Part shown: positions 3,576 to 21,505 of the stretch, in pieces
Position numbering within the stretch: position 1 is the first letter of the stretch
How the letters are laid out: each line of letters opens with the position of its first letter
Assembly (NCBI RefSeq): GCF_000022265.1
Contig: NC_011979.1
Span: forward strand, 3,240,001 to 3,272,000
Source: Geotalea daltonii FRC-32
GTDB lineage: Bacteria > Desulfobacterota > Desulfuromonadia > Geobacterales > Geobacteraceae
Length of the DNA: 32,000 nt
Direction of reading: 5' to 3'
The notes under the pieces: model-generated
Seen by the model: only the letters and a program-made list of their open reading frames with translations
Told to the model about the DNA's origin: nothing
The model's database searches: none
Position numbers and translations under genes: made by a program

Positions 3576-3590
3576 TGGAATCCTTGGTTT

Positions 3591-4487
3591 CTAATTGGCA
3601 GCAACCTGCCCTGCGTTGATATGGGCATCGCTCCCGGAGCCGATTATTTCCTGCTTCAGGACTTCTCCCATGCTGGTGAATTTCAGATGGTCCAGCAGGT
3701 ACCTCACCTTGCCTTCCATTTGCTCAAGGTTCAGGTAATGGCGGAAGGAGGACTTCAATCCGGCTTTTATGCGCGGCTGTCCCGGGTCTATTTCCCATGG
3801 ATGAAAATAGACTACCGCCGGCTGCAGCTCTTTCTCGTTCACCCGCCTTATGGCCCACGCCACCAATTGGGCGGGTAAAAGCCTGAGATATCCCCCCCCG
3901 GCCACCGGCAACGTCCATTTCCGTCCCCCAAACTGCAGCGGCAATGTGGTGATAGGAAATTCCCTGAGCCTGCCGGATTTGGTCTCGATGTCATGGATAA
4001 ACCTGTTGCCCCCGGGGATGCCGTAAATATCATGGACTATGGGAAAGATGCTCGAATCGAAGGTAAATCCCTCTTCCACCAGGATCTCCTGGGCCCAGAG
4101 GGATCTGCCGGTTATCGAATAACTGGGCGCCCTGTAACCGCAGACAGCCATACCGGTGATATCTTCAAGGAGTGCTTTCGACCGGCGGATATCCTGGCGA
4201 AACCGTTCACGGCCTATTTCATAAACCAGCTGATGACTGTAGCCATGGCAGGCGATCTCGTGGCCACGGGATCGTATTTCCCGCACCAGGTCAGGGAGGC
4301 GGTTGGCCAGCCAGCCGAGAATGAAGAAGGTGGCCCTGATCGATCGGATTTCCAGGAGTTCCAGAATTCTCAGGGTGTTTTCCCTTGCCCGTATGGGGAA
4401 ATTGTCCCAGTCGGCCATCTTTACGCGACCGGCAAATGCCGTCACCTGGAAGTAGTCCTCCACATCGATGGTAAGTGCATTATCCAT
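3591..4487 (-). CDS. Polysaccharide deacetylase (NodB-like), XrtA/PEP-CTERM-locus subfamily
   Basis: The ORF track gives 3591..4532. I prefer the ATG at 4487 (MDNALTIDVEDYFQV...), which is the usual N-terminus of this subfamily. It follows GGAG and removes the 29-nt overlap with the upstream gene. A histidine motif (EIACHGYSH) is present. Confidence 0.85.
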   Translation of the reverse strand: MDNALTIDVEDYFQVTAFAGRVKMADWDNFPIRARENTLRILELLEIRSIRATFFILGWLANRLPDLVREIRSRGHEIACHGYSHQLVYEIGRERFRQDIRRSKALLEDITGMAVCGYRAPSYSITGRSLWAQEILVEEGFTFDSSIFPIVHDIYGIPGGNRFIHDIETKSGRLREFPITTLPLQFGGRKWTLPVAGGGYLRLLPAQLVAWAIRRVNEKELQPAVVYFHPWEIDPGQPRIKAGLKSSFRHYLNLEQMEGKVRYLLDHLKFTSMGEVLKQEIIGSGSDAHINAGQVAAN

Positions 4488-4503
4488 GGGGCTCCGTAGC
4501 GGC

Positions 4504-5802
4504 TCAGAAAACCTTTCTGAATTCAAGGGCAATCCTGTTCACTTGCCCCTGGTAGCCGGAAAAATAGTTGGCGTACCGATAGAGGGCGGAAGCTGACATA
4601 CCCTCGCCGAAAGTATAAGTGATGCCGGTTGCGACCAGCAACCTGTGGGTATCGTTGTTGCTGGTAGAGAGATTATTGCTGGAAATCAGGCTGTTGTTCT
4701 CATAGCGGGAACCTTCCACGGTCATGTCGGCAGCCAAGCGGTTCAACAGTTCATACCGCCCTCTTATGGCGGCTGTAGCTCGTTGGGTTACCAGTCGGTC
4801 AAGTTCCGTGTCTACGAACCTGGAATAGGAAATCATGCCGCCCACCAGTCCCTTGGAAAGTAGCAGATCTATCGCTCCAGAATAGCTGGTCTCCTTGGTG
4901 ACCGCTCTCAGGGGGTCCTCGTCGTAAAATACCCTGGTGTTCAAGGTAGTTAACACGTTGCCCATCTGATGCTTTATCTCTGCGACCCAGAACGGAGCGT
5001 TGTACCGTCGCCCCTGCCGGTAGCGAATGGTTGTCCAGCCCCCTTTGAGGGAAATGAGCGATGTGCCATCAGGCCCGTATTTCTTTTCCAGCCCAAGGTA
5101 CGAGTCCTGCTTGTTGGAACTTCCCGAGGACCGGTCAGTACGGGTAAAGGAATATCCGGCGCTGGCCCTGGCGTTCCTGGCGAACTCGTAGGCAACCTCG
5201 CCGAAGCCGGTATGCGCCCTTCTTGAAATGCTGTCGACCTGGCGCAGGGCCACAATTTGAGCTTCATCAGGTCTCTGATACCAGATGTTGGTATACCGGT
5301 AACCCAAACGGGTTGTGGTTCTCGGCGAAAGATTGAAGGAGAAGTATGGCGTGGCGGTGAGGTCGTTCTGGTCGGTCTGGCCGACGAACAGGCTTTCCTG
5401 GGTCACATCCCGCGACACATCCAGGGAAACTCTCTGGTAGTTGTCCCCCGCATCCAGGAACAGCAATTGGTCAATCAGTGCCAAATGTGCATTGACATTG
5501 GCATAATGGGTATCATCGTCCTTCCTTGACTGGCGCAGGTAATAGCGGTAGTCATACCGATACTCCCCGTCAACCGTACCTATGGGGGCCTCATACCTGA
5601 GCTGGATGCCGGGCATGGCCCGCGTTATGTAATCGCTCTTTTTGTTGTTCTTGTTTTCGTAGACGTTGTCCGTAAACTCCTCGCTTACTGTAATGCCGGG
5701 ATGCATCTCGAAATCGGCAAGGGCATCCCCCTCGGCAAAAACAGACAAAAAGAGGCAGAAGAACAGTAAACGGCAAATGTAAAGAAAGCCTTTGTTTTTC
5801 AT
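4504..5802 (-). CDS. Outer-membrane beta-barrel protein of the PEP-CTERM-locus type
   Basis: The track ORF extends to 5994, but that extension overlaps the ATPase gene. The internal ATG at 5802 gives a signal peptide (MKNKGFLYICRLLFFCLFLSVFAEG). The protein is rich in Y/R/T/G alternating strands and ends in ...ALEFRKVF, a terminal aromatic typical of OM barrels. Confidence 0.7.
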   Translation of the reverse strand: MKNKGFLYICRLLFFCLFLSVFAEGDALADFEMHPGITVSEEFTDNVYENKNNKKSDYITRAMPGIQLRYEAPIGTVDGEYRYDYRYYLRQSRKDDDTHYANVNAHLALIDQLLFLDAGDNYQRVSLDVSRDVTQESLFVGQTDQNDLTATPYFSFNLSPRTTTRLGYRYTNIWYQRPDEAQIVALRQVDSISRRAHTGFGEVAYEFARNARASAGYSFTRTDRSSGSSNKQDSYLGLEKKYGPDGTSLISLKGGWTTIRYRQGRRYNAPFWVAEIKHQMGNVLTTLNTRVFYDEDPLRAVTKETSYSGAIDLLLSKGLVGGMISYSRFVDTELDRLVTQRATAAIRGRYELLNRLAADMTVEGSRYENNSLISSNNLSTSNNDTHRLLVATGITYTFGEGMSASALYRYANYFSGYQGQVNRIALEFRKVF

Positions 5803-5803
5803 T

Positions 5804-6967
5804 TCAGTTTCCAAAAATGCGGCGGATAAAGTTGGTTTTCTCTTCTTTCTGCATCGCCGGCTGACTTGCAGCATGGCTGGACTTTTCCATGTAGCTGTCC
5901 ATCTTGCGCCTGATCTCGCTGATGGAATGATCGGTCTCGCCACGATAGGTTGTGACCAGGTTCTGCACGGATTTGATCCTGTTGCCGATATCATTCACCA
6001 TGTTGGTATTGAACCTGGTGGATTCCTTTTCAAGGGATTCCAGCCTCGACCTGATATCAACCAGCACTGAAGCCAATTGACTCTCTTTCTCACTGTTTCC
6101 GGCACCCGCACCATCAACTGAGCCTTTATCGGTTTCGGCAATGGTTGTCTTCCAATACTGGTTTTCAAAGTCCAGGTCGCCGATGATCTCGTGGACCATT
6201 TGGCCGTCAAGCTTCTTTAGGCCTTCGGCAGCGGCCGAGAGCATGAGGAAGTCGCAGATGATGTTGATCAGCCTGGGGATCCCCCTGCTGTATGTGAAGA
6301 TGTTATCCAGGGCCTCCGTTTCGAAGATCACGGCTGCACGGTCCCCGGCCACATCCAGCCGGTGATGGATGTACTCCTCGACCTCCTGACGGGACAATGG
6401 CTGCAGGTGGCAGTTGATGCTGATTCTCTGCCTGAGCTGCAGCAATTCCGTACGCGCCAGGGTCTTGCGTAACTCCGGCTGGCCCACCAGTATGATCTGC
6501 ATCAGCTTGGCGTGATCGGTTTCAAGGTTGGACAGCAGGCGCACCTCTTCCAGGAGCGAGGCACTGAGATTCTGGGCCTCGTCTATGACCAGGGTCGGCT
6601 GGTTTCCCTTGGCATATTGCTCTATGAGAAAAACGTTCAGGTCCCTGAGCAGCTCTATCTTGTCCTTGCCGTGCACCGGCAGGCCGAAGTCGTCATTGAT
6701 CATGGAAATCAGCTGCTCGGAATTCACCCTGGTATTGAAAATTTTGCCCAACAACACCCTTTCGTGGTTTTTCTTTATCAGGTCCCGGATGATGGTCGTC
6801 TTGCCTGAACCCACTTCACCGGTGAGCAGGATAAAGCCAGAGCGCTCCTTGATGCCGTAGTTCAGATAGGTCAGTGCCCTTTTGTGAGATTTGCTCAGGT
6901 ACATGAAATCCGGATTGGGCAACAGGTCGAACGGCTTTTTGGTCAACTTGAAATATGATTCGTACAT
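5804..6967 (-). CDS. ExeA/GspA-like AAA ATPase, XrtA/PEP-CTERM system-associated
   Basis: Walker A is LLTGEVGSGKTT and Walker B is LVIDEAQNL. The preferred start is the ATG at 6967 (MYESYFKLTKKPF...), preceded by AAGGGGAGAAGG. The track start at 7015 would overlap the upstream gene. The C-terminal ~100 aa look coiled-coil. Confidence 0.85.
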   Translation of the reverse strand: MYESYFKLTKKPFDLLPNPDFMYLSKSHKRALTYLNYGIKERSGFILLTGEVGSGKTTIIRDLIKKNHERVLLGKIFNTRVNSEQLISMINDDFGLPVHGKDKIELLRDLNVFLIEQYAKGNQPTLVIDEAQNLSASLLEEVRLLSNLETDHAKLMQIILVGQPELRKTLARTELLQLRQRISINCHLQPLSRQEVEEYIHHRLDVAGDRAAVIFETEALDNIFTYSRGIPRLINIICDFLMLSAAAEGLKKLDGQMVHEIIGDLDFENQYWKTTIAETDKGSVDGAGAGNSEKESQLASVLVDIRSRLESLEKESTRFNTNMVNDIGNRIKSVQNLVTTYRGETDHSISEIRRKMDSYMEKSSHAASQPAMQKEEKTNFIRRIFGN

Positions 6968-7011
6968 GCCTTCTCCCCTTATGGGACGTCTCCGTTGCTG
7001 ATCCGGTTCCT

Positions 7012-7857
7012 TCACCAGGCATACTGCTTATGCTGATAATAATCGTGATAATGCCCGTTGAGGTTCTCATTCACCGTTTCGTTGTAAACGATCCCCAACA
7101 GATTGCTCTTATCCAAGGCGGTCAGCGCATCGTTGACTTCCTTGACGCTGGCAGCCCCTTCCTTGACCACAAACACGATCCCGTCGACAATGGTGCTGAT
7201 GGTGCGGGTTTCGGCAAAAAGCAGCACCGGCGGCGTATCGATGATTATATAACGGTCAGGGTAACGGCTTTTGATCTCGGCTATCAGGCTCTTCATCTTC
7301 GACGAGGAGAACAGCTCACCCGGATTCTCCACCTTTTTCCCGTAGGGCAGGATCGACAGTTTTCCTATGCCGGTCTTGATCAGCGTCTCCCCCACATCGA
7401 TTCCCCTGGTGAGACAATCGGTAAGACCCAGTTTCGGCTCGAAACCGAAATATTTATGAATTGAAGGTTTTCTCAGGTCTGCATCCACCAGGAGCACCGT
7501 ATGGTCGAATTCCTGGGCCAGACTCACGGCCAGATTTATTGCCGTTATGCTCTTCCCCTCGCTGGCAAAGGCACTGGTAACCATGAGGGTATTCCTGAAC
7601 CGGTCGCCGTTGGTGAGCTTGACCAGAAGGGACTTCAGCTTTCGGTATTCTTCAGCCACGGACGTCTGCGGTGCGGTAACGCTTACCACCAGCGGATTTT
7701 TCACCTTCAGCCTTTCATTGGGCATCGGCTGCTGATAAGCATGCACAGATCCATGGGCAACGGCCAATGGCGAGCCGGGCACTTTGCCCAGGGCTGCTTT
7801 GCCATCCGTACCCCGCATTTTCGCCGCTTTCTCCAGTGCTTCTTCTATTCTGCTCAT
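7012..7857 (-). CDS. Bacterial tyrosine (BY) autokinase, EpsG/Wzc C-terminal-domain type
   Basis: P-loop VTSAFASEGKS, Walker A' LLVDADLRKP and Walker B IIIDTPPV. The C-terminal tail is Tyr-rich (GHYHDYYQHKQYAW). Confidence 0.8.
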   Translation of the reverse strand: MSRIEEALEKAAKMRGTDGKAALGKVPGSPLAVAHGSVHAYQQPMPNERLKVKNPLVVSVTAPQTSVAEEYRKLKSLLVKLTNGDRFRNTLMVTSAFASEGKSITAINLAVSLAQEFDHTVLLVDADLRKPSIHKYFGFEPKLGLTDCLTRGIDVGETLIKTGIGKLSILPYGKKVENPGELFSSSKMKSLIAEIKSRYPDRYIIIDTPPVLLFAETRTISTIVDGIVFVVKEGAASVKEVNDALTALDKSNLLGIVYNETVNENLNGHYHDYYQHKQYAW

Positions 7858-7894
7858 AAAATTTCCTCTCCTGTTTGGCTTTCTCCGTAACCTT

Positions 7895-9397
7895 TCATTT
7901 AAATTGCCCCACGGCTTGGGACAAGTACTGCTTCAGCTGGAGGGAATTCAGGGATGAGGAGAAGAGGGGTATTTGCAAGAGCTCCAGCAACAGGACAATA
8001 AGTATGAGCGAAAAATAACAGGCCGAAATGGCGTAGAGCCTGACATCGTGAGCCTTTTGCAATTTGATCTCTGCCGGGATCTGCATCTTGGGAATGACCG
8101 CCAGTACCGGCAATCCCAGTGCCTTGAGCCCATCCAGGCTCTTCACCGATTCATCATAATAATCCAGGAGCAGCACCAGACCGAATGCAACCGCAAGGCC
8201 CCCGGCAATCCCCCCGAGAATGATGGCGATCCTGTTGGGACTTATGGGCTTGACCGGCAACACTGCAGGGTCGACTATTCTGAAAGTGGTCCCCTTGTCC
8301 TCCACCTCCATCTGTTTTGAGAACTCCGACTGCCCATGGCGTGTGACAAGCTGGTCGTAGACCTGTTTCTGATTGGCCTTGTCACGTTCCAGCTGTTCCA
8401 GTTCTGCCCTTGCTGCGGGAATGTTGCGAAGCATAGCCCGTGACGAGGCAATATTGGCGTACTGCTTGGACTCGGCCGATCTGAGGACCCTGAGTTCGGC
8501 GTCGATCCTCTCCAGTTCCTGCATTTCCGCTCCACCCAGTCTCGCTTGGCCGGAGGAAGCAAGAGCCTGTTCCCGCACCGATTCTATTTCTGACTTCAAC
8601 CGCATGACTTCAGGATAGCGATCAGTGTATTCAACCCGCATCTCCTCCAGCTTTTTCTCCAGTGTCTGTAATCGCATCTGGGCTGGATTGTGCTTTTTCA
8701 GCTGATTGCGTGAAGCTTCAAGCTGTGCTTTTCGAAACGCTATCTCGTCAATTCTCTGCTGCGCCCCCGATATTTCCCTTTCCAATGCAGCCGGGTCAGC
8801 CGTTGCGACCGAACCCTTCTCCATTCTGAACCTGCTGACTTCTGCCTCCGCCTTGTCCATTTTCTCTTTCAATACGGTGATCTGCTCCGAAAGAAACTTG
8901 CTGGCGCCATAGGATTCGGCCCGTATCGAAGAAGAGTTTTCTTCGATGTATCGCCTTACCAGGGTGTTCACGTAATCCCTGGCCCGCTTCGGGTTTTCCC
9001 CCGTATATGAAATGGTGAAGAGATTTTCCTTGTCTCTGAGCTCGACTTTAGTGTCCTTCTGAAACTGGCTTATCAATGTATCAGTATCGCCGTTCTTGCC
9101 AAGATTCAGGTCAAGATCGCTGACGACTTTCTGCAATAAGGGGCGGCTTGCCATGGCATAATTCAGGCCCTTGATTTTGTCCTCCATGGATGGAGTCACT
9201 GCGAAGCCTCTGACCAGCTCATTTATCAGTGCTTTTTCGATAAACACCGTGCACTTTGCCTCATATTTTTCAGGCAGAACATAACTGACGATAACAGTAA
9301 TGGTCATGACTGCCAGTGCCGTCACCAGAAAGAGTGTTTTGCGCTGCTTGACCAGATTCAGATATCGCTTGTAATCGAAATCATTCGTTGTCGGCAT
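7895..9397 (-). CDS. Polysaccharide chain-length determinant (Wzz/PCP-type, EpsF-like)
   Basis: 500 aa. There is an N-terminal TM (LFLVTALAVMTITVIVSYVL), a long coiled-coil periplasmic region, and the proline motif PVKPISPNR followed by a second TM (IAIILGGIAGGLAVAFGLVLLL). Confidence 0.85.
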   Translation of the reverse strand: MPTTNDFDYKRYLNLVKQRKTLFLVTALAVMTITVIVSYVLPEKYEAKCTVFIEKALINELVRGFAVTPSMEDKIKGLNYAMASRPLLQKVVSDLDLNLGKNGDTDTLISQFQKDTKVELRDKENLFTISYTGENPKRARDYVNTLVRRYIEENSSSIRAESYGASKFLSEQITVLKEKMDKAEAEVSRFRMEKGSVATADPAALEREISGAQQRIDEIAFRKAQLEASRNQLKKHNPAQMRLQTLEKKLEEMRVEYTDRYPEVMRLKSEIESVREQALASSGQARLGGAEMQELERIDAELRVLRSAESKQYANIASSRAMLRNIPAARAELEQLERDKANQKQVYDQLVTRHGQSEFSKQMEVEDKGTTFRIVDPAVLPVKPISPNRIAIILGGIAGGLAVAFGLVLLLDYYDESVKSLDGLKALGLPVLAVIPKMQIPAEIKLQKAHDVRLYAISACYFSLILIVLLLELLQIPLFSSSLNSLQLKQYLSQAVGQFK

Positions 9398-9486
9398 AAC
9401 AACTCCATATGACTTATTTTATTTACCTACCCCTCTCAATCCACCCTGTTCCATAGGGAGGAAGCGAACGTAAGTGGCAGGGGTAA

Positions 9487-10368
9487 TCAAAACATGCCTT
9501 CTTTGACTATTATATAATCGCCAGGTTTCAGTTTTATGTTTTGTGCCAGATCTCCATCCATTATCAAATCCTTTGCTTTGATGGATATGGTTACATCTTT
9601 CTTGCCGTTCTTTCTCAGTATCGATGTATCATTCAGTTTGGCAAACCGGGTAAAACCGCCCGATTCAAGAACAGCTTCCATGACTGTCATTCCCTCCCGG
9701 TACTCGATGACGCGCGGAGCATTGACTGCCCCAAGCACATAGATGTTCTTATCCAGAAGCTGCGGAATAAATACGGCGTCGTTACTCTCTATGATCATAT
9801 CTTCGCCCACATCCCCGTCCACGAATAGTTTATGAAAATCCTGCTTTATCTTTGCCCCGTTCCGCAACACGTACGCGTTCTTGTAGTCGGCAACCCTTGA
9901 GTTGGCAGCAACTCCTCCACCCCCTTGGCCCCTGGCTACCGGGCCGGGCGCAGCGCCAGGACCTGAATTGCCGATGGCGCAGAGCAACTGCAGCAGGGTC
10001 GTCCGCCGGTTCAGATCGAAAACGCCGGAACTTACCCCACCGCCAAATACATAGACCTTGCTGTTGGTGATTTCCCGCACCGCCACCGAGACGATCGGGT
10101 TTTTCACCAGGGACTTGAATTTGACCGCCAGGGTTGACTGTAACTCCTTGGGGGTCACACCGGATGCGGTGACGTCGCCAAGACCGGGAATAGTAATTTT
10201 CCCGTCGGGCCTTACCCGCACCGATACGTTAAGGTCCCTCACCCCCCATACGGAAATGTCCAGGCCATCCCCCTCCCCTATGACATAATCTCCGGCAAAC
10301 ACGCACAGGGGCAGTAACATCAGAACTGTCAGTACAAAAGCCGTCAATCCCATACATCGTTTTGTCAT
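9487..10368 (-). CDS. Periplasmic polysaccharide export protein (Wza/EpsE-like: Poly_export + SLBB)
   Basis: Signal peptide, then the DYVIGEGDGLDISVWG Poly_export signature, then an SLBB-like C-terminal half (IYVLGAVNAPRVIEY...). Its ATG overlaps the sugar transferase stop (ATGA at 10365..10368). It contains a Gly/Pro-rich insert (see findings). Confidence 0.85.
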   Translation of the reverse strand: MTKRCMGLTAFVLTVLMLLPLCVFAGDYVIGEGDGLDISVWGVRDLNVSVRVRPDGKITIPGLGDVTASGVTPKELQSTLAVKFKSLVKNPIVSVAVREITNSKVYVFGGGVSSGVFDLNRRTTLLQLLCAIGNSGPGAAPGPVARGQGGGGVAANSRVADYKNAYVLRNGAKIKQDFHKLFVDGDVGEDMIIESNDAVFIPQLLDKNIYVLGAVNAPRVIEYREGMTVMEAVLESGGFTRFAKLNDTSILRKNGKKDVTISIKAKDLIMDGDLAQNIKLKPGDYIIVKEGMF

Positions 10369-11726
10369 CTTCCACCTCGCCTGAAAAGAACCACCTTTAT
10401 TGTCTCCAGGATGATCATCAGATCGAAAATAAGGGTCAGGTTCTTGATATAGTAAAGGTCGTACCTGAGCTTTTCTATGGCATCATCAACTGACGCACCG
10501 TAGGGATAGCTGACCTGCGCCCATCCTGTGACCCCCGGTTTGACAAAATGCCTGCTGGAATAGTAGGGAATGATCTCCTTCAGTTTCTCCACGAATTCCG
10601 GGCGCTCGGGTCTGGGGCCCACCAGGCTCATGGAACCTCCCAGCACGTTGAAAAGCTGGGGGATCTCATCGATCCTGCTTTTGCGGAGAAATTCACCTGT
10701 TCTCGTCACCCTCGGGTCGTCCTTGCTGGCCCAGACCGCACCGGTCCCTTTCTCCGCATCGGCCTTCATGGTCCTGAACTTGTAGATGGTAAACGGCTTT
10801 TCCCTGGCCCCCACCCGCTGCTGCCTGAACAGGACCGGCCCTGGAGAATCAAGCTTGATCAGGAGCACGATGATTGGCAAAAAAGGGAGGAACGCCAGCA
10901 GAATGAGCGCTGCGCAGACTATATCCACTACCCTTTTCAGGATACGCAGAAGTATGGTGACCCTGAATCCCTGGGAGAATATGAACCAGCTGGGAGTGAT
11001 ATTCTCCAGAAGCAGCTTTCCCGTCATCTGCTCGTAGAAAGAGGGAGCATCCACCACCTCTATGCCGCTGAATTTGCAGGTCAGGACTTCCTGCAGGGGA
11101 AATATGCCTCTCCGTTCGGACAGGGAAATGACGATCTTGTGTGCCCGTGAATTCTTCACCCTTTCGTAAAGTTGGACAGACAGGGCAGGAATCTCTGCCG
11201 ATGTTTGATCGAATATCTCACTGGTGCAGTCCACATAGCCGGAAAGAACATAGTTCTGATTACCAGCGGTGATGAGCCCGCCGATCTGCCTTGCCAGAGG
11301 GCCGGTCCCGAGCACCAGCACCCTTCTGGCAAAGGCTGAGAACCTGGAGCTCAGATAACAGAGATAATGCCAGGCCAGCTGCAAAGACCCGAACAGCACC
11401 AGCGCCAGCACCAGCATCCACCCTCCATACATATGGAGTGGCTGAAAATGGTAGATCACCGACAACACGAAAAATGAAAAAATGACCGATGTGCCTATAC
11501 GGACGGCACTTTCCTTGCCACCGAGAAACCTGTTCAGGTAGTAAATCTCCACCAGGAAAGAAGAAAACAGGGAGGTAAAAATAAAGATAATTACCCTTAC
11601 CAGGTGGATCTCGCCCAGCTCCTCACTTGCCGGCAGAAACCCGTAAAGGGCGTAATGGGCCAGGATCAGAGCAAGACATGCCGCTACCGCATCCCCGGTT
11701 ATCAAGATTAGGACCCTTTTGACCAT
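10365..11726 (-). CDS. Polyprenyl-phosphate glycosyl-1-phosphate (priming) sugar transferase, EpsB/WbaP-like
   Basis: 453 aa with N-terminal TM helices. The C-terminal bacterial sugar-transferase domain shows KRVVDIVCAALILL..., DSPGPVLFRQQRVG, FTIYKFRTM, DEIPQLFNVLGGSMSLVGPRP. Confidence 0.9.
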   Translation of the reverse strand: MVKRVLILITGDAVAACLALILAHYALYGFLPASEELGEIHLVRVIIFIFTSLFSSFLVEIYYLNRFLGGKESAVRIGTSVIFSFFVLSVIYHFQPLHMYGGWMLVLALVLFGSLQLAWHYLCYLSSRFSAFARRVLVLGTGPLARQIGGLITAGNQNYVLSGYVDCTSEIFDQTSAEIPALSVQLYERVKNSRAHKIVISLSERRGIFPLQEVLTCKFSGIEVVDAPSFYEQMTGKLLLENITPSWFIFSQGFRVTILLRILKRVVDIVCAALILLAFLPFLPIIVLLIKLDSPGPVLFRQQRVGAREKPFTIYKFRTMKADAEKGTGAVWASKDDPRVTRTGEFLRKSRIDEIPQLFNVLGGSMSLVGPRPERPEFVEKLKEIIPYYSSRHFVKPGVTGWAQVSYPYGASVDDAIEKLRYDLYYIKNLTLIFDLMIILETIKVVLFRRGGR

Positions 11727-11729
11727 GAG

Positions 11730-13529
11730 CTAATTCCTTTTTTCAGACCTGCGCAACTGGGCAAGTATGTTTTTTGCCTGGTCCTGTTCGGGGAATTTTC
11801 CCAGCTGAAGGGCCTTCTTCAGCTTCAATCCGGCCTGGACTTCATTTCCGGTTTCCATGAGGGCTAAAGCCAGATGATACTGGGCATAGCCATTATTCGG
11901 CAGTCTCTCGGCCGCCTTTTGCAATAGTTCGAGGGCATGGGGCTTTTGCCCGTTTTTGAGCAGAACGTAACCAAGGGTTTCCATCACGGCAGGATTGGAG
12001 GGTTGAAGCTTGTATGCCCTCATGGCCAGACGTTCGGCCTCACTGAGGCTGCCATAACCGTCGGCATAGAGACAGGCCAGATTATTCAGCGCCTGGACAT
12101 AGTTTTCCGACTTTTCCAGGGCTGCCCGGTATTTTGCCGCCGCCTCTTTCTTTTGTCCCGACTGGTCCAGCAATACCCCCTGTGCGTACAATGCAGGAGC
12201 ATAGTCGGGTTTGTTCCGCGCCGCTTCGGTAAATGCTGCCATGGCTGCCTTGTTGTCCTTGTTTCCTGCATTCAGATCACCCAGTATCATCAGGGTTTCA
12301 ATATTCCATTGATCCCCTTCGCCCCCTCTTTTCAACATATCGCCGGTGGCTGTCGGACCCAGGCCGGTCGCTGCCTTGAGTTCCCTCACTCCCTCTTCAT
12401 TCATCCCCTTCGCCAGATATCCCCTGCCGAGGACGTTATGGGCAAAGGCATGGCCTGGGTCAATCTGCAAGACCTTCCGGATTTCACCGATAGCATCATC
12501 GGCCCGCCCCTGCCTGAGAAGTATCAAGCTGTTGAGGACGCGAGCCTGGACAAATGACGGGTTATAATCGATTATTCTTCTGAACTGGCTGAGGGCATTC
12601 TCCAGTTCACCATGGCAATAGAGGCTAAGCCCGAGAAAGTAATACCCTTCCATGGATGGTTGTTTTTTCAGGGATTCCTGCAAAAGTGCGATAGCTTCCG
12701 TGTAATTCTTCGTATAGTACTGGACAAGCCCCTGCAACCGGCTCCCCTCACCCTTGTCCGGAAAGGTTTTCACCAGGTAAGCTGCCAGTTTCCGGGCCTT
12801 TTCCACATCATGCTTGTCCAGATAGACAAGGCCCATTTTGTAAGGTGCAACCGGGTCGGCCTTATCGAAACCGGCAATCTGCTGATACAGCTCAAGGGCT
12901 CTGTCGCTGTTGCCCATGGTATTCTCAAGTGCTGCCATAAGGTAGCAGGCCTTGCTGTTTTTCGGCTCCATGGCCAGTGTTTCCTCAAGCTGCCGCCTTG
13001 CTTCCGGGTGCTTCCGCCAGGCCATGTAGATACCTGCAAGGGCAAGTTTTACGCCGGTGTTTTTTGTGTCCCCCTGCATGGATTGCAGCAGGTAGCGTTC
13101 GGCCTGTTCAAGGTTTTTCTGCAGGGCATAGCTTTCTCCGATCAAGCCCAGCGCCTCTGCGGTACGGCCATTGCTTTTCAGGTATTCTTCAACTTCGGCA
13201 CGGGCCTGTTCAGGCTTTCCCATGGTGTTGTAAAGCCTTGCCAGGTCCAGATGTACCGTACTTTTTGCAGGATTTTGCTCCAGTACCTGCAGGAACTCCT
13301 TTTCCGCCTGTTCGTGCTTGTTGGCCTTCACATAAGCCAAAGCCAGCTGATATCGCGCACTCAGATACTCGGGATCCTTTTCCAGGGCATTCTTCAACAA
13401 CACTATCGCGCCGCCGGCGTTGCCTTTGCCGATCTGACTGATTCCCTCGGCATATAGCTCTTCCTTTGCCTTGCTGCTGCAACCGGGCAAGATGAAGATT
13501 AAGACGAGCAACACGAGAAACTTTAGCAA
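11730..13529 (-). CDS. TPR-repeat lipoprotein (PrsT-like, PEP-CTERM system-associated)
   Basis: TPR repeats run throughout. The track start at 13586 is a TTG with no SD. The in-frame TTG at 13529 is preceded by GGAGGA (13542..13537, 7-nt spacer). It yields an ideal lipoprotein signal peptide, MLKFLVLLVLIFILPG|CSS. Confidence 0.75.
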   Translation of the reverse strand: MLKFLVLLVLIFILPGCSSKAKEELYAEGISQIGKGNAGGAIVLLKNALEKDPEYLSARYQLALAYVKANKHEQAEKEFLQVLEQNPAKSTVHLDLARLYNTMGKPEQARAEVEEYLKSNGRTAEALGLIGESYALQKNLEQAERYLLQSMQGDTKNTGVKLALAGIYMAWRKHPEARRQLEETLAMEPKNSKACYLMAALENTMGNSDRALELYQQIAGFDKADPVAPYKMGLVYLDKHDVEKARKLAAYLVKTFPDKGEGSRLQGLVQYYTKNYTEAIALLQESLKKQPSMEGYYFLGLSLYCHGELENALSQFRRIIDYNPSFVQARVLNSLILLRQGRADDAIGEIRKVLQIDPGHAFAHNVLGRGYLAKGMNEEGVRELKAATGLGPTATGDMLKRGGEGDQWNIETLMILGDLNAGNKDNKAAMAAFTEAARNKPDYAPALYAQGVLLDQSGQKKEAAAKYRAALEKSENYVQALNNLACLYADGYGSLSEAERLAMRAYKLQPSNPAVMETLGYVLLKNGQKPHALELLQKAAERLPNNGYAQYHLALALMETGNEVQAGLKLKKALQLGKFPEQDQAKNILAQLRRSEKRN

Positions 13530-13684
13530 AACCGAATCCTCCAGCCATGGATTGTGAACAGTATTTCGCCTTACCGGAAAGTCCAATGTGATCTGGGCGG
13601 TTTACTCGAGGACTCCTCAGGGACCAAACCCGTGCGGGGGACCAGCAAGTTAATTATTTTTCTATTATTTAAATAGCTTAATTT

Positions 13685-13910: not shown

Positions 13911-14408
13911 TCAACGGGTAGTGTCTTTTATTTCCTGTCCCGAGCTTACAAAGGAGATGCCTTGTCCGGACTTCATGCCGATCATCACGCTTTCTATGAC
14001 AGGAACATTTACTTCTTTCTGCGAAGTCCATCTGACGATAAAATTGGCGCCAGTACCGCCCGTTGTATCCTCCTCAGGAATAAAAATATCCGTTGACTCC
14101 AAAGGTCCGAGGGTTACTGGTTGTTGGTAGTATTTTCTCACCAACCTACCCTTTGTATCATAGTAATCCGCAGCAACAATTTTGATAGGATTCCACATAT
14201 CCGTATTCCTGATACTTAAAATAGTTGCCAGATTGAATGGAATCTTTTTTGGGGCGCTGAAGATATTGGAATAGACGGGCACATATAAGATTTGTCCTTT
14301 TGAAGCCCTGTATTCTGTTCCTGCAAACGCGATTTGGCCAATAGACAAAAGCATGACAAGTAATATACAGATGGTAAGTAATTTGTTGCACTGACATCGG
14401 TATGTCAT
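13911..14408 (-). CDS. Secreted DUF3124-like protein
   Basis: The preferred ATG at 14408 is preceded by AGGAG with a 6-nt spacer and gives the signal peptide MTYRCQCNKLLTICILLVMLLSIGQIAFAG. Motifs GQILYVPVYSNIF, LATILSIRNTD, YYDTKGRL, GGTGANFIVRW and VIESVMIG...GQGISFVSSG match my memory of the DUF3124 family. Confidence 0.65.
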   Translation of the reverse strand: MTYRCQCNKLLTICILLVMLLSIGQIAFAGTEYRASKGQILYVPVYSNIFSAPKKIPFNLATILSIRNTDMWNPIKIVAADYYDTKGRLVRKYYQQPVTLGPLESTDIFIPEEDTTGGTGANFIVRWTSQKEVNVPVIESVMIGMKSGQGISFVSSGQEIKDTTR

Positions 14409-14457
14409 AAGAGTCTCCTGATATCTCATTTTATGGATACAGAGCCGGATCAATTTG

Positions 14458-14889
14458 TCAGTTTCTACTTTCAAAAAGATAGTCAAAATCATCGATATAT
14501 TGAATGCCGTTGATTTTCCATGTATTCAAGGGTTTATAGAAGGTGAAACGCCAAAGCAGCGAGTGGTTCTCGAATTTATGCAGATAATAATAGCGAACGA
14601 AGGATTTTCCTATACTCTCTTCTCTCACAAATTCTTTGCCGGTAGCCTTTCCGAAACGTTGTTGAACCACCGGCCATTGGGTTGCTATTTGATTTGCAAG
14701 CCCGTCTATTTCCACTTCCGGCAGAGGCCAGAATGGTTTGGCCAGCTCCAGCCCCTTTTTGAAGTCAGCCTTGATAAAGTAACCGACGATATTTTCAGAC
14801 AGTTCCTTAGCTTCCTTTGTCGTTTGCAGCTCGCCTGCCAGAGAAAACTGCGGGATCAGCCACAATAAAACGAAAATAATTTTTCTCAT
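14458..14889 (-). CDS. Small secreted protein of unknown function
   Basis: The track start at 14892 is a GTG. The ATG at 14889 follows GGAGAG. The signal peptide is MRKIIFVLLWLIPQFSLA|GE. I recognise no family. It is AT-rich and lies 49 nt upstream of the DUF3124-like gene on the same strand. Confidence 0.55.
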   Translation of the reverse strand: MRKIIFVLLWLIPQFSLAGELQTTKEAKELSENIVGYFIKADFKKGLELAKPFWPLPEVEIDGLANQIATQWPVVQQRFGKATGKEFVREESIGKSFVRYYYLHKFENHSLLWRFTFYKPLNTWKINGIQYIDDFDYLFESRN

Positions 14890-14945: not shown

Positions 14946-14974
14946 ACTATATAACTACCGTCCATTCTTGTCAA
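14946..14974 (-). promoter_or_regulatory. Candidate sigma70 promoter for the two small secreted-protein genes
   Basis: Minus strand reads TTGACA (14974..14969), N17, TATAGT (14951..14946), about 55 nt upstream of the ATG at 14889. Confidence 0.4.
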
Positions 14975-15295: not shown

Positions 15296-15325
15296 TTGAC
15301 AATTTATAATTACGACAATTATATT
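15296..15325 (+). promoter_or_regulatory. Candidate sigma70 promoter for the S8 protease gene
   Basis: TTGACA (15296..15301), N18, TATATT (15320..15325). The alternative is N17 with TTATAT. The region is AT-rich and about 165 nt upstream of the ATG at 15492. Confidence 0.35.
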
Positions 15326-15491
15326 AACCATTCTTAAATACCTCCCGTTATTCTTCATACCATCCCCTTATTTTTGATTGTTCCACCTAAACCGTTACTG
15401 CCGGCTGCATCAAATTACCCAAAAGATTCATAGTTCGTTGTGTTGACGCTTGTTATTTTCTGCAGCAGCAAAAAAAACAGAGGAGGATGCA

Positions 15492-18400
15492 ATGTACAGG
15501 TACAGGCTAAGCAGGATGCTGGGATTGTTGTTGCCGGTATTGATCATTCTTGGCGGGGTGGGAATCTCACACGCCCAGAACCGAGTGCAGATCAACGGTT
15601 ACAACTTCGACCTGAAAGAAGGAGAACCTTCCGTTCCGGCAGTACTCGATACTGCGGACGAGCAGGAGCCTGACAAGGGACCGCCAGAGAACGGACGGCA
15701 GAAAAAAAGAAGCGACAGAAAGTGGATCGTTCAGTTCGACGGCCCAGTGCATGAGGCAGACAAGAAGCAATTGGCCGAACTTGGAGCCCGAATCGGAGAT
15801 TATGTCCCCGATTTCGCATTTATCGTCAGCATGGACAATAAGACGACAAATGAGGTGAAAAAGCTACCCTTCGTAAGCGGTGTCGTGCGGTACAAGCCCG
15901 CTTACAAGATTCACCAGAATCTCAAGGACGAGAGCGGTGAGCTGAGAGTACAAAAAGGAAAGAAGGTAAAGCTTCATATCAAGCTGGACAGCAAGGAAAA
16001 TCAATCACAGGTATTGTCCATTGTTCATGGGAAGAAAGGAAAAGTCCTCGATGTAAGCGGCGATTTGCTCCGGGTGGAGGTAAACCAGGAGGATATTGCC
16101 CAGTTGGCCCAGATCGAAGAAGTGCTTTCCGTCGAAGAAGCAACTGATCTTCAGCTCCTTAATGACACCTCCAAATGGGTCATACAGACCTACACTTCGA
16201 ATAATACCAAGATATGGGACCATGGGCTCCACGGAGAAGGCCAGATCGTGGGCATCGGCGACAGTGGGATCGACTACGACATGCCCTGGTTCCGTGATCC
16301 GGCAGGGACAACCATCGGGCCTATGCACCGGAAGGTCGTCGGTTACGATCCGACCTACGGCGATGATTACGATTCCAACTCCGGTCATGGAACCCATGTG
16401 GCCGGCTCTGTGGGTGGCGACCGTACCCCCGTCGACGGCCTTGCAAACGCTAACGGCATGGCCCCCAAATCCAGGTTCTTTCTCCAGGATATCAGCCCCG
16501 GTGAAACAAGGTATGTCTACCCACCTTCAGACTTGGGTCTCATGTTCATAACTGCGTATAACGCAGGCGCCAGGCTTCATACCAACAGTTGGGGGGGCGG
16601 CGGCAGTTCCTATAATGCAGCTGCAATGAGCGTCGACCGCTTCATGTGGGAACATAAAGACTTCCTGGCCCTTTTCGCCAATGGTAACGCCGGTCCCGGA
16701 GTCGGCAGTGTGGGATACCCGGCTTCAGCCAAGAGCGTTGTCAGCGTCGGGGCCACGGAAAATGGAACAGGTGCAGAAAATATCGCCTCCTTCAGCTCAA
16801 ATGGCCCCACTGCAGACGGCCGCATCAAGCCAACAATAACAGCGCCGGGAGTCAATATCATCTCGGCTGACTCCGACGGAATCAAAAACAGCAACAACAG
16901 CGGCACCCTCTCCTATAGCGGTACTTCCATGGCCACTCCCACGGTGGCTGGAGCAGCGGCATTGGTCAGGCAGTATTACACCGAAGGTTTCTACCCAGGG
17001 GGAGCGGCCAATTCTGCTAATGCCTTCACACCCTCAGCCGCCCTCATCAAGGCAACCCTGGTGAACAGCGGCCAGAACATGAGCGGCAGTAACACCGACG
17101 ACGTGATCCCTTCCAGCGGTCAAGGGTGGGGAAGGATCAATATTTCAAAAACCCTCAGCTTCAGCGGTGACGCGAATACGCTTGAAGTCCTGGACAATAA
17201 CACCGGATTGGCCACCGGCGAAAGCTGGAGTCAGCCCTACTTTGTCACCGGCGACCATGCCCTGAAGGCGACCCTTGTCTGGACAGACTATCCCGGTGCA
17301 GTAGGCGCCGCAAAGGCGCTCGTCAACGATCTGGACCTGACAATTACGGCACCAGACGGGACCACATATACCGGGAACGTCTTCTCCAACGGCGAATCAG
17401 CGGCCGGCGGCAATGCCGACAGGCTGAACGTGGAAGAGCAGATCCTCATCAAAGCGCCGAATAAAGGCACCTATACCATCACCATCAGCGGGTATAACAT
17501 TCCGAACGGGCCACAACCGTTCGCCCTTGTCCTTACCGGCGCTTCCGGGGTAACCTCCAAAGGGATGATCAGTCTCAACAAGAACAGGTACAACGCAGCC
17601 GGCACCGTAGAGATAAAGGTGGCCGACCTCGACCTCAATAGCGACAGCACAACACTTCAGGAAGTATATGTAAACATAAAGAGCGACACGGAGCAGGCAG
17701 GCGAGCGTGTGAGACTTGTTGAAACCACCCCCGACTCGTCAGTCTTTACCGGCACGGTCGGCCTCAGGCTCGGTGCTCCGGCCTCAAACAACGGTTATCT
17801 TGAGGTAATCGGGGGCAACACCGTTACCGGTACCTATGAGGACGCCAACGACGGTACTGGGTCTCCGGCCACGGCAACCGCTACGGCCCTGATCGATATC
17901 ACCCCCCCGGTCATATCGTCGGTAACCGTTGATTCCATATCCGATATCGGTGCAACAGCCGCATGGCTGACAGACGAACCGGCCGATTCTACCATTAACT
18001 ACGGTGAAACAGGCGCCCTCGGCTCCTATAAATCCGACTTCAAACTGTCAACCCAGCATGGTATCGGCCTTGGAAACCTCAAAGAAGCCAAGACCTACTA
18101 CTATGAGCTTTATTCGACCGACGAGGCCGGAAACCTTGTAAAAAGCGACAACGGCGGAAGACTATACAGCTTCACCACGGCAAACGTTCCACCGGAACTG
18201 ACCGCCAACTCCTCGAACGGCTATGACACGTATCTCCCCGAGTCGAACATATACGGGACTGCGACCGACCATTCCGGAATCGCCTCGATTACGGTCAACG
18301 GGACGGAAGCCACTTACCGTTCAAGCGACGGATATTATGAACTGGCGGTTCCACTGACACTGGGAATGAATAACTTCACCGTCATTGCCACCGATACTCT

Positions 18401-21400
18401 CGGTAATGCGCAAACGACGGGTGTGAGTATTAATCGTCTCCAGCCCCCCGACCTGGTGATGCAGACAATCGCTGGTCCTCCGACAGCGGGAACAGGAGCC
18501 TCGGCTGCCATAACCGATACCGTGTGCAATATCGGGGTGGGAAACTCAAATGCCTTTTCGTTAGGATTATACCTTTCATCCGACAACAGTATTGCCACAA
18601 GCGATACACGCGTTGGCAGCCGGTCAGTAGCTTCTCTTGCAGCAGGACAATGTTCTTCGGGGACGACCACCGTAACTCTTAACGGCAGCATGGGGAGTTA
18701 CTATGTCGGCGCGATAGCAGATTACGCCAATGTACAGTACGAGGCCGATGAGACCAACAACAGCCTGGCAGGAAACCTGCTTGAACTGCGAGGTCCCGAC
18801 TTGGTGGTAACCTCAGTATCCGGTCCGACCGTCATCGACACCGATACCGACAGCACGCCACCGGCAACCGTCGTGGTCAAAGTAAAAAATATCGGGGAAG
18901 GCAGGGCGTCCAACACCTTCCTGGTCCGTCCCTACCTCTCGACTGACAACGCGATCACCACGGCCGATACTTCCCTGGGTGCCCAGTACATCTACGGTCT
19001 GGCCGCAGGGGAAGAGGTAACACTGACCTTCACCACCACCATTCCCCGTGGAGCCGGGGGTGCCACACCCTATTACTTCGGAGCCATAACCGACACCGGC
19101 AACGCCAATACCGAGATTGACGAAGCCAACAATGCTCTTGCCGGAAACCTGGTTACGGTCAACCGCACCCAGGTGACTCCCGATCTCGTCGTCACTTCCG
19201 TTGCCGGTCCGACCGTCATCGATACCGATACCGACAGCACGCCACCGGCAACCGTCACCGTCAAAGTCAAGAACAGCGGTAACGGCAGGGCATGGAACAC
19301 CTTCCTGGTCCGTCCCTACCTCTCGGCTGACAACGCGATCACCACGGCCGATACTTCCCTGGGTGCCCAGTACATCTACGGTCTGGCCGCAGGGGAAGAG
19401 GTAACACTGACCTTCACCACCACCATTCCCCGTGGAGCCGGGGGTGCCACACCCTATTACTTCGGAGCCATAACCGACACCGGCAACGCCAATACCGAGA
19501 TTGACGAAGCCAACAATGCTCTTGCCGGAAACCTGGTTACGGTCAACCGCACCCAGGTGACTCCCGATCTCGTCGTCACTTCCGTTGCCGGTCCGACCGT
19601 CATCGATACTGATACCGACAGCACGCCACCGGCAACCGTCACCGTCAAAGTCAAGAACAGCGGTAACGGCAGGGCATGGAACACCTTCCTGGTCCGTCCC
19701 TACCTCTCGGCTGACAACGCGATCACCACGGCCGACACTTCCCTGGGTGCCCAGTACATCTACGGTCTGGCCGCAGGGGAAGAGGTAACACTGACCTTCA
19801 CCACCACCATTCCCCGTGGAGCCGGGGGTGCCACACCCTATTACTTCGGAGCCATAACCGACACCGGCAACGCCAATACCGAGATTGACGAAGCCAACAA
19901 TGCTCTTGCCGGAAACCTGGTTACGGTCAACCGCACCCAGATGACTCCCGATCTCGTCGTCACTTCCGTTGCCGGTCCGACCGTCATCGATACCGATACC
20001 GACAGCACGCCACCGGCAACCGTCACCGTCAAAGTCAAGAACAGCGGTAACGGCAGGGCATGGAACACCTTCCTGGTCCGTCCCTACCTCTCGACTGACA
20101 ACGCGATCACCACGGCCGATACTTCCCTGGGTGCCCAGTACATCTACGGTCTGGCCGCAGGGGAAGAGGTAACACTGACCTTCACCACCACCATTCCCCG
20201 TGGAGCCGGGGGTGCCACACCCTATTACTTCGGAGCCATAACCGACACCGGCAACGCCAATACCGAGATTGACGAAGCCAACAATGCTCTTGCCGGAAAC
20301 CTGGTTACGGTCAACCGCACCCAGGTGACTCCCGATCTCGTCGTCACTTCCGTTGCCGGTCCGACCGTCATCGATACTGATACCGACAGCACGCCACCGG
20401 CAACCGTCACCGTCAAAGTCAAGAACAGCGGTAACGGCAGGGCATGGAACACCTTCCTGGTCCGTCCCTACCTCTCGACTGACAACGCGATCACCACGGC
20501 CGATACTTCCCTGGGTGCCCAGTACATCTACGGTCTGGCCGCAGGGGAAGAGGTAACACTGACCTTCACCACCACCATTCCCCGTGGAGCCGGGGGTGCC
20601 ACACCCTATTACTTCGGAGCCATAACCGACACCGGCAACGCCAATACCGAGATTGACGAAGCCAACAATGCTCTTGCCGGAAACCTGGTTACGGTCAACC
20701 GCACCCAGGTGACTCCCGATCTCGTCGTCACTTCCGTTGCCGGTCCGACCGTCATCGATACCGATACCGACAGCACGCCACCGGCAACCGTCACCGTCAA
20801 AGTCAAGAACAGCGGTAACGGCAGGGCATGGAACACCTTCCTGGTCCGTCCCTACCTCTCGGCTGACAACGCGATCACCACGGCCGATACTTCCCTGGGT
20901 GCCCAGTACATCTACGGTCTGGCCGCAGGGGAAGAGGTAACCCTGACCTTCACCACCACCATTCCCCGTGGAGCCGGGGGTGCCACACCCTATTACTTCG
21001 GAGCCATAACCGACACCGGCAACGCCAATACCGAGATTGACGAAGCCAACAATGCTCTTGCCGGAAACCTGGTTACGGTCAACCGCACCCAGGTGACTCC
21101 CGATCTCGTCGTCACTTCCGTTGCCGGTCCTTTGAGCGCAAACACAGGTCAGATGGTACCTGTGACCCTGAAAGTCAAGAACGCCGGTAACGGCAGGGCA
21201 TGGAACACCTTCCTGGTCCGTTCCTACATCTCGGCTGACAATGAAATCACCACGGCCGATACTTCCCTGGGTGCCCAGTACATCTATGGTCTGGCCGCAG
21301 GGGAAGAGACAACCATAACCATTAACGGAACTGTCCCTTCAACCTTTGTATCCGGCACCTACTATTTCGGTGGGATAGCCGACACAGGCAACGCCAACGC

Positions 21401-21461
21401 AGAGCTCAACGAAACTAATAACGCTCTTGCAGGCAATGAAATTGTCATTACCAAACTCTAG
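15492..21461 (+). CDS. Giant secreted subtilisin-like serine protease (peptidase S8) with I9-like propeptide, P-domain-like beta-sandwich, Fn3/Ig-like modules and a C-terminal array of eight CARDB-type domains
   Basis: The start at 15492 follows GGAGG with a 5-nt spacer and gives the signal peptide MYRYRLSRMLGLLLPVLIILGGVGISHA|Q. The catalytic triad motifs are GIGDSGID (Asp codon 16260..16262), SGHGTHVAG (His 16386..16388) and SGTSMATP (Ser 16926..16928), with oxyanion region ANGNAG. The CARDB signature PDLVVTSV...VKVKN.G...LAAGE...E.DE.NN is repeated. Confidence 0.9.
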   Translation: MYRYRLSRMLGLLLPVLIILGGVGISHAQNRVQINGYNFDLKEGEPSVPAVLDTADEQEPDKGPPENGRQKKRSDRKWIVQFDGPVHEADKKQLAELGARIGDYVPDFAFIVSMDNKTTNEVKKLPFVSGVVRYKPAYKIHQNLKDESGELRVQKGKKVKLHIKLDSKENQSQVLSIVHGKKGKVLDVSGDLLRVEVNQEDIAQLAQIEEVLSVEEATDLQLLNDTSKWVIQTYTSNNTKIWDHGLHGEGQIVGIGDSGIDYDMPWFRDPAGTTIGPMHRKVVGYDPTYGDDYDSNSGHGTHVAGSVGGDRTPVDGLANANGMAPKSRFFLQDISPGETRYVYPPSDLGLMFITAYNAGARLHTNSWGGGGSSYNAAAMSVDRFMWEHKDFLALFANGNAGPGVGSVGYPASAKSVVSVGATENGTGAENIASFSSNGPTADGRIKPTITAPGVNIISADSDGIKNSNNSGTLSYSGTSMATPTVAGAAALVRQYYTEGFYPGGAANSANAFTPSAALIKATLVNSGQNMSGSNTDDVIPSSGQGWGRINISKTLSFSGDANTLEVLDNNTGLATGESWSQPYFVTGDHALKATLVWTDYPGAVGAAKALVNDLDLTITAPDGTTYTGNVFSNGESAAGGNADRLNVEEQILIKAPNKGTYTITISGYNIPNGPQPFALVLTGASGVTSKGMISLNKNRYNAAGTVEIKVADLDLNSDSTTLQEVYVNIKSDTEQAGERVRLVETTPDSSVFTGTVGLRLGAPASNNGYLEVIGGNTVTGTYEDANDGTGSPATATATALIDITPPVISSVTVDSISDIGATAAWLTDEPADSTINYGETGALGSYKSDFKLSTQHGIGLGNLKEAKTYYYELYSTDEAGNLVKSDNGGRLYSFTTANVPPELTANSSNGYDTYLPESNIYGTATDHSGIASITVNGTEATYRSSDGYYELAVPLTLGMNNFTVIATDTLGNAQTTGVSINRLQPPDLVMQTIAGPPTAGTGASAAITDTVCNIGVGNSNAFSLGLYLSSDNSIATSDTRVGSRSVASLAAGQCSSGTTTVTLNGSMGSYYVGAIADYANVQYEADETNNSLAGNLLELRGPDLVVTSVSGPTVIDTDTDSTPPATVVVKVKNIGEGRASNTFLVRPYLSTDNAITTADTSLGAQYIYGLAAGEEVTLTFTTTIPRGAGGATPYYFGAITDTGNANTEIDEANNALAGNLVTVNRTQVTPDLVVTSVAGPTVIDTDTDSTPPATVTVKVKNSGNGRAWNTFLVRPYLSADNAITTADTSLGAQYIYGLAAGEEVTLTFTTTIPRGAGGATPYYFGAITDTGNANTEIDEANNALAGNLVTVNRTQVTPDLVVTSVAGPTVIDTDTDSTPPATVTVKVKNSGNGRAWNTFLVRPYLSADNAITTADTSLGAQYIYGLAAGEEVTLTFTTTIPRGAGGATPYYFGAITDTGNANTEIDEANNALAGNLVTVNRTQMTPDLVVTSVAGPTVIDTDTDSTPPATVTVKVKNSGNGRAWNTFLVRPYLSTDNAITTADTSLGAQYIYGLAAGEEVTLTFTTTIPRGAGGATPYYFGAITDTGNANTEIDEANNALAGNLVTVNRTQVTPDLVVTSVAGPTVIDTDTDSTPPATVTVKVKNSGNGRAWNTFLVRPYLSTDNAITTADTSLGAQYIYGLAAGEEVTLTFTTTIPRGAGGATPYYFGAITDTGNANTEIDEANNALAGNLVTVNRTQVTPDLVVTSVAGPTVIDTDTDSTPPATVTVKVKNSGNGRAWNTFLVRPYLSADNAITTADTSLGAQYIYGLAAGEEVTLTFTTTIPRGAGGATPYYFGAITDTGNANTEIDEANNALAGNLVTVNRTQVTPDLVVTSVAGPLSANTGQMVPVTLKVKNAGNGRAWNTFLVRSYISADNEITTADTSLGAQYIYGLAAGEETTITINGTVPSTFVSGTYYFGGIADTGNANAELNETNNALAGNEIVITKL
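18447..21458 (+). repeat. Array of eight CARDB-encoding modules (divergent copy 0, six 384-bp tandem copies, divergent terminal copy 7)
   Basis: Each module begins with a P-D-L-V motif. The starts are at 18447, 18795, 19179, 19563, 19947, 20331, 20715 and 21099. Confidence 0.9.
18795..21098 (+). repeat. Six in-frame tandem repeats of 384 bp (128 aa); copies 2-6 are nearly identical
   Basis: The spurious ORFs in the track recur at exactly 384-nt spacing (19073, 19457, 19841, 20225, 20609). By eye I find only five variable positions among copies 2-6: 19226-type C/T, 19326-type G/A, 19736, 19941 and 20942. The near-perfect tract runs about 18912..21130. Confidence 0.95.
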
Positions 21462-21479: not shown

Positions 21480-21505
21480 AGCAGGCTGACAAACGTCAGC
21501 CTGCT
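21480..21505 (+). terminator. Hairpin downstream of the protease gene (possible intrinsic terminator)
   Basis: AGCAGGCTGAC-AAAC-GTCAGCCTGCT forms a perfect 11-bp stem 19 nt after the TAG. It is followed by CCTTCGTCTTCC rather than a clean T-run, so confidence is only moderate. Confidence 0.45.

Follow-up and report, generated by a model that had tools for sequence, protein, structure and literature searches.

A near-identical CARDB repeat array in a secreted subtilase gene of Geotalea daltonii FRC-32, probably amplified recently and homogenised by recombination

The 3′-part of a secreted S8 subtilase gene of Geotalea daltonii FRC-32 contains a tandem array of near-identical units of 384 bp, each encoding one CARDB module. 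We consider it likely that this array arose by recent amplification and has been kept homogeneous by unequal crossing-over together with short-tract gene conversion. The analysis was performed on a stretch of 32,000 nucleotides (nt) of contig NC_011979.1 (positions 3,240,001 to 3,272,000, forward strand), in the following referred to as the window, and all positions are counted from its first letter. It followed up an earlier note on this DNA that had been made from the sequence alone. The elements of the gene required for the argument are as follows.

15492..21461, + strand: secreted S8 subtilase gene, 1989 amino acids (aa), KP-43-like, with eight C-terminal CARDB domains
18447..18794, + strand: CARDB module 0, an old diverged paralogue outside the homogenised array
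18795..18911, + strand: diverged 5′ part of copy 1, patchy, with 23 sites differing from copy 2
18912..21130, + strand: homogenised tract without interruption, 2219 bp long (5.78 units), from the last 267 nt of copy 1 through copies 2-6 into copy 7 as far as its nt 32
21131..21458, + strand: rest of copy 7, which is the last CARDB module; mosaic, with a diverged 3′ third

Tandem Repeats Finder reported a single array at 18820-21308 with a period of 384, 6.5 copies, 97% matches and no indels (score 4572). These limits correspond to the outermost patches of identity and not to the edges of the continuous tract. When the units were phased as 18795+384k, six of them, the first starting at 18795, lay in frame with the protease open reading frame (ORF), each comprising 128 codons. 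Comparison of the columns across the copies then yielded exactly five variable positions among copies 2-6, given here by their offset within the unit.

Offset 47, site a, C/T: C,T,C,T,C at 19226/19610/19994/20378/20762; synonymous ACC/ACT
Offset 147, site b, G/A: G,G,A,A,G at 19326/19710/20094/20478/20862; Ala/Thr
Offset 173, T/C: copy 3 only
Offset 227, A/C: copy 6 only
Offset 378, G/A: copy 3 only; Val/Met

Copies 2-6 represent five distinct haplotypes (CGTAG, TGCAA, CATAG, TATAG and CGTCG), which differ on average by 2.4 positions per 384 nt, or 0.63%, with a range of 1-4 per pair, and the amino acid identity among copies 1-6 is 95-100%. At sites a and b, copies 2-5 read C-G, T-G, C-A and T-A and hence display all four combinations. 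Between copies 1 and 2 there are 23 differing sites, all of them confined to offsets 5-116, and one more at site b, the remainder of the unit being identical; the identity tract therefore begins at 18912. At the other end, copy 7 shares its first 32 nt with the array, up to position 21130. The phase of the units corresponds to that of the CARDB domain, as indicated by the Pfam start of the last domain at aa 1869 (nt 21096) and by an AlphaFold model in which strand 1 begins at residue 3 of the unit. The identity tract is thus shifted against the domains, with its edges located within a β-strand and not at domain borders. These results bear out what the earlier note had described: six in-frame units of 384 bp, no more than five differing positions in copies 2-6, which the unit alignment recovers exactly, the four combinations of sites a and b at the same coordinates and with the same bases, and a tract at 18912-21130 that starts about 117 nt into copy 1, ends 32 nt into copy 7 and ignores the domain boundaries.

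One refinement has to be added, since identity does not end sharply at 18912 and 21130 but recurs in further patches within copies 1 and 7. In the diverged part of copy 1, which differs from copy 2 by 13 synonymous and 5 non-synonymous codons, a segment with a synonymous change in 7/7 codons (18798-18818) is followed by 53 nt that depart from copy 2 only at offset 44 (18820-18872) and again by a diverged segment (18873-18911). Likewise, copy 7 contains exact runs of 37, 41 and 21 nt. Its codon alignment with copy 6 comprises 63 identical, 19 synonymous and 38 non-synonymous codons, and runs of 10, 12, 13 and 7 identical codons (21099-21128, 21186-21221, 21246-21284 and 21288-21308) alternate with stretches carrying many replacements and two indels. 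As a background for old copies we used the divergence between copy 0 and copy 2. Module 0 shares 42-43% amino acid identity with the other modules, and 36/51 of the codons for identical amino acids in copies 0 and 2 carry a synonymous change; the old paralogous modules of the protease gene are saturated at synonymous sites. The alternation of identity and divergence in copies 1 and 7 is the product expected of short conversion tracts between diverged repeats.

The closest relative found in the genome scan is Geotalea toluenoxydans JCM 15764, whose contig NZ_BBCJ01000010.1 shares 96.3-97.6% nucleotide identity with the window over positions 5264-18914. This draft contig ends at window position 18914, 3 nt into the identity tract. 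The final 120 nt of the contig are orthologous to the 5′ segment of copy 1 that has diverged, with 6 differences to the window versus 26 to copy 2, and the left junction seems, by this comparison, to be shared by both strains. Over the first 3.4 kb of the protease gene the two strains differ by 2.2%. Simple divergence since the junction was formed would predict about 8 differences per pair of copies, whereas 1-4 are observed. Because the copies differ by 0.63% while the strains differ by 2.2%, homogenisation or turnover of the array seems to have gone on since the two strains parted. The contig end at 18914, together with two partial homologues from drafts (P0012 and P0039) that stop inside a repeated unit, also agrees with the earlier note in that such arrays are easily collapsed in assemblies.

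Comparable arrays are present in related proteases. Among the 120 homologues listed, 11 contain tandem modules at about 94-99% amino acid identity, and all 11 are within the 46 best matches. Four arrays, that of the window included, were verified in the DNA sequence.

Window: 384 bp, 6.5 copies, 97% matches, CARDB
L018 7198-9202, a contig of JGI 3300039222 encoding an orthologue at 69% identity: 354 bp, 5.7 copies, 99% matches, CARDB
L044 9275-11143, G. uraniireducens Rf4 (CP000698): 273 bp, 6.8 copies, 96% matches, Fn3-like
L045 10016-10968, Geomonas nitrogeniifigens (CP077684): 321 bp, 3.0 copies, 98% matches, other module

The near-identical arrays of other periods represent independent amplifications in homologous proteases. 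In the Rf4 array 6/10 informative site pairs are incompatible by the four-gamete test, so that mosaicism is not peculiar to the array in the window. In two of the relatives a multihaem cytochrome gene follows or adjoins the protease gene (L018 9654-10376 and L045 12354-16247), with matches to Paired_CXXCH or MtrC-like models, some of them faint; the window has no such neighbour.

The earlier note had taken the four combinations at sites a and b as a signature of repeated unequal crossing-over or gene conversion and not of simple divergence after duplication. Recombination as such is supported by the analysis, but the two sites by themselves require only one event, since either one breakpoint in the 100-nt interval between a and b or one parallel C-to-T change accounts for the pattern. 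It is the array in its entirety, and not this pair of sites, that implies repeated events. The strongest support for recombination is provided by the patchwork copies 1 and 7, the contig end at 18914 and the contrast of 0.63% with 2.2%, and not by the four-gamete pattern. A unique stepwise history of the six copies was tried by hand; several equally short scenarios fit, among them conversion of site a alone and a chimeric unit derived from a crossover between a and b, and we claim none of them.

Several points weigh against recent amplification with continued homogenisation. The four-gamete argument involves two sites only, and one of these, site a, is the C of a CpG within a GATACC-GATACC mini-repeat, where recurrent change is possible. 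The run-length permutation test for the patchiness of copy 7 gives only a modest value (p=0.03). The contig break in G. toluenoxydans tells only that a repeat starts there, and it conveys neither the copy number nor the sequence of this repeat. Moreover, no second assembly spanning the array was found by exact-protein look-up or by genome and metagenome scans. The exact 1989-aa protein is not on record in the protein look-up, none of the 435 pattern matches obtained in the metagenome scan with the repeat unit was confirmed, and the scan with the N-terminal part yielded one contig of 99% identity (L019), which ends inside the protease domain. As for the role of the array, the protein ends with ITKL straight after the last CARDB domain and has no recognised C-terminal anchor; the array itself is the C-terminus, and the reading of the array as a stalk of variable length is therefore weaker than for wall-anchored proteins.

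One alternative is an assembly artefact, in which copy number or the order of the variants is wrong because the reads were too short for 2.2 kb of near-identity. We consider this unlikely. Short-read drafts of relatives do break at such arrays, and the phase of variants lying more than a read length apart depends on this one assembly, for which no independent counterpart was found. However, unique sequence adjoins the array in the window at either end, the occurrence of five haplotypes in five full copies implies at least five unit types in the data, and arrays of similar size are present in two complete genome records (CP000698 and CP077684). An artificial over-expansion from fewer units is unlikely because all five full copies are distinct haplotypes, while under-counting is possible.

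Alternatively, a very recent burst of in-register duplication followed by point mutation only could have generated the array, with neither chimeras nor conversion, the mosaic then being due to recurrent C-to-T change at site a. The CpG context of this site within its mini-repeat and the small number of informative sites, just two, speak for such a history. We nevertheless judge it quite improbable. When simulated histories were restricted to those with 5 copies and 5 variable sites, 0.3% of the runs under in-register, tree-like duplication with finite-sites mutation and no chimeric units yielded a four-gamete pair, as did 10% of those with unequal crossing-over at random junctions. Moreover, a duplication burst leaves the out-of-register hybrid junctions and the patches in copies 1 and 7 unexplained, and the 6/10 incompatible pairs in the homologous Rf4 array likewise argue against it. 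Hardly credible is the proposal that selection on the nucleotide or protein sequence, such as codon or mRNA constraints, and not recent origin or conversion maintains the identity: purifying selection does act on the modules, as the 13 synonymous versus 5 non-synonymous codons in the diverged part of copy 1 suggest, but copy 0 and this same 5′ part are saturated at synonymous sites, which indicates that protein selection leaves third positions free, the edges of identity lie within a β-strand and not at domain borders, and equal conservation of synonymous and non-synonymous sites would be expected across orthologous modules of other species, the opposite of what is seen.

Two further candidates were rejected. 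The variants (C/T, G/A, T/C, A/C and G/A) are not adenine-specific as for the target of a diversity-generating retroelement, and no reverse transcriptase is encoded among the window genes scanned. Phase variation by frameshift is ruled out by a unit length that is a multiple of three.

Recent amplification followed by recombination would imply the following history. The C-terminal tail of the protease would at first have been a string of old, diverged CARDB modules, one type of which was recently amplified, whereupon homology-driven DNA recombination would have held the copies near-identical. Unequal crossing-over of misaligned units would alter the copy number and create chimeric units, and short-tract gene conversion would spread patches among the units and into the older flanking modules. 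Together, both processes could account for the left hybrid junction at 18911/18912, where the old 5′ part of copy 1 meets the array type, for the right junction at 21130/21131, for the patches of identity lying further out in copies 1 and 7, and for the way in which C/T and G/A are combined in copies 2-5. As the unit corresponds to 3 x 128 nt, gain or loss of units keeps the frame and changes only the number of CARDB modules. We infer both the recombination mechanism and a variation of module number between strains; the latter is plausible.

The features of the gene product are in line with a secreted enzyme. The ORF opens with TTG at 15450; however, ATG 15492 is the likely start codon, because it is preceded by GGAGG at a distance of 5 nt and followed by an N-terminus, MYRYRLSRMLGLLLPVLIILGGVGISHAQ, that reads as a signal peptide by sequence inspection. 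The Peptidase_S8 domain (PF00082) spans aa 248-547 and covers the full model (E=1e-42, 146.9 bits versus a cut-off of 21.8). The motifs of the catalytic triad and the oxyanion hole are present (GDSG 256, HGTHV 299, NSWG 365 and GTSMA 477), the triad thus being apparently intact. Residues 243-681 match the KP-43 protease (1wmd, E=9e-67). A Glucodextran_B-like domain (Pfam) follows at aa 918-981, and CARDB (PF07705) is matched in 8 stretches (E=5.5e-86, 283.8 bits versus a cut-off of 22.7).

A single unit, modelled by AlphaFold with an alignment of 45 homologue modules, yielded an all-β structure of 8 strands with a predicted local distance difference test (pLDDT) value of 94. A sequence search of the PDB with one unit gave no match. 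However, the fold search found relatives, the best of which were 3idu/2kl6, the CARDB domain of PF1109, with template modelling (TM) scores of 0.68-0.80 and a root-mean-square deviation of 2.3 Å. According to this model, the repeat unit is predicted to fold as a CARDB domain, that is, an Ig-like β-sandwich. The linker between the domains comprises about 6 residues (NRTQVT).

Each repeat unit ends with a TVNRT sequon located in this linker (aa 1224, 1352, 1480, 1608, 1736 and 1864). A gene for an STT3/AglB-like oligosaccharyltransferase is located at 26753-29026 on the - strand, 5 kb downstream of the protease gene. It matches the Pfam models STT3, AglB_core and AglB_L1, and the NCBIfam model archaeo_STT3 below its cut-off. 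N-glycosylation of the repeat array could be considered as a lead from these sequences.

The earlier note had regarded the product as a surface or matrix protein. The signal peptide and the adjoining exopolysaccharide locus are consistent with this assignment, but no recognised anchor is present. OzpA, the subtilase that processes OmcZ in G. sulfurreducens, was considered as well; the window contains no omcZ-like neighbour, and we claim no link. The surroundings of the protease gene comprise the following elements.

2538..13586, - strand: XrtA/PEP-CTERM exopolysaccharide cluster, divergent from the protease gene, near-complete set
13911..14492, - strand: gene for a DUF3124 protein, between the exopolysaccharide cluster and the protease gene
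15296..15325, + strand: candidate sigma-70-like promoter, TTGACA, 18-nt spacer, TATATT, 11/12 matches, consensus match only
21480..21505, + strand: terminator-like hairpin just past the stop codon, 11-bp stem with 7 G-C pairs, consensus match only

Within the cluster, NCBIfam models were matched above their curated cut-offs for PrsT, the TIGR03013 glycosyltransferase, an export protein, a chain-length determinant, a tyrosine autokinase, an ATPase, an outer-membrane protein, a deacetylase and a FemAB-family protein. No exosortase gene was identified among the window ORFs scanned, and for the ORF at 83-1348 NCBIfam gave no match at E<=1e-10. Upstream of the promoter-like site, an intergenic segment of about 270 nt (14986-15255) contains the C-rich run ccccgccccccccaa; at this place G. 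toluenoxydans JCM 15764 has about 45 unrelated nt instead. No riboswitch or other RNA of Rfam was detected upstream of the protease gene, even at E<=1.

The number of modules may tune the reach of the protease or its retention in the exopolysaccharide matrix. More generally, and only tentatively, the tail of this Geobacteraceae protease family might be a selected device for length variation, in which lineages amplify different Ig-like modules and their rapid gain and loss sets reach or retention in the XrtA/PEP-CTERM exopolysaccharide matrix of the biofilm. The modules amplified in different lineages are CARDB (128 or 118 aa), Fn3-like (91 aa) and a further type (107 aa), and this repeated, independent amplification of different modules hints at selection for tail length or avidity. 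If true, the device would extend the principle of the Periscope Proteins, described below, to an enzyme in environmental, metal-reducing bacteria. For genome work, the gene defeats short-read assembly; its annotated length may differ between strains, and protein lengths of this protease family in draft genomes are unreliable.

Concerted evolution of tandem arrays by unequal crossing-over and gene conversion is the textbook general model for such sequences. The array resembles it in that divergence within the array is lower than between strains (0.63% < 2.2%), in the chimeric flanking copies and in the mosaic sharing of variants; there is no difference in principle, the present array being a small intragenic case with few informative sites. 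At the protein level, KP-43 (1wmd) and SubHal (5fax) correspond in their catalytic domain and the following β-domain to residues 243-681, but they comprise about 434 aa and, unlike the window protease, lack a CARDB tail. Closer in architecture is Geobacter sulfurreducens NP_954260.1, recorded as Subt-(CARDB)9 in a 2008 domain survey (PMC2605481), a Geobacteraceae protein in which an S8 catalytic domain likewise precedes a series of CARDB domains, an architecture common to many homologues. In contrast to the present analysis, this survey gives the domain order only and no near-identical DNA repeats, hybrid junctions or conversion patches.

At the DNA level the closest counterparts are the Periscope Proteins (Whelan et al. 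2021, PMC8201768), which include SasG/Aap, Rib/alpha C, Sgo_0707, Esp and CdrA, and in which long near-identical domain repeats let intragenic recombination vary the length of the protein. The main text of that paper does not mention CARDB. Its sequence criterion is repeats of >50 aa with at least 80% identity, and the array described here has units of 128 aa, with 95-100% amino acid identity among copies 1-6. Like these proteins, the protease combines long in-frame tandem repeats of a globular, mostly Ig-like domain, at very high DNA identity, with an N-terminal functional domain, and short-read assemblies fail in both cases. In these proteins an elongated stalk of repeats projects the functional domain away from an anchor at the cell surface. 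A protease head at the N-terminus and globular repeats joined by short linkers fit this feature, but no wall or membrane anchor follows the array. Furthermore, the head is a protease and not a ligand-binding domain, and the host is an environmental member of the Geobacteraceae. Periscope Proteins are defined by strain-to-strain variation in repeat number, whereas the protease array is known here from one assembly. From its repeat structure we describe the array as Periscope-type at the DNA level and as a candidate for the functional class. The phenomenon is familiar from many bacterial surface proteins and no principle is changed; the setting, however, is less studied, and with the protease the group of proteins that owe their length to near-identical domain repeats gains a member that carries an enzyme and comes from an environmental bacterium.

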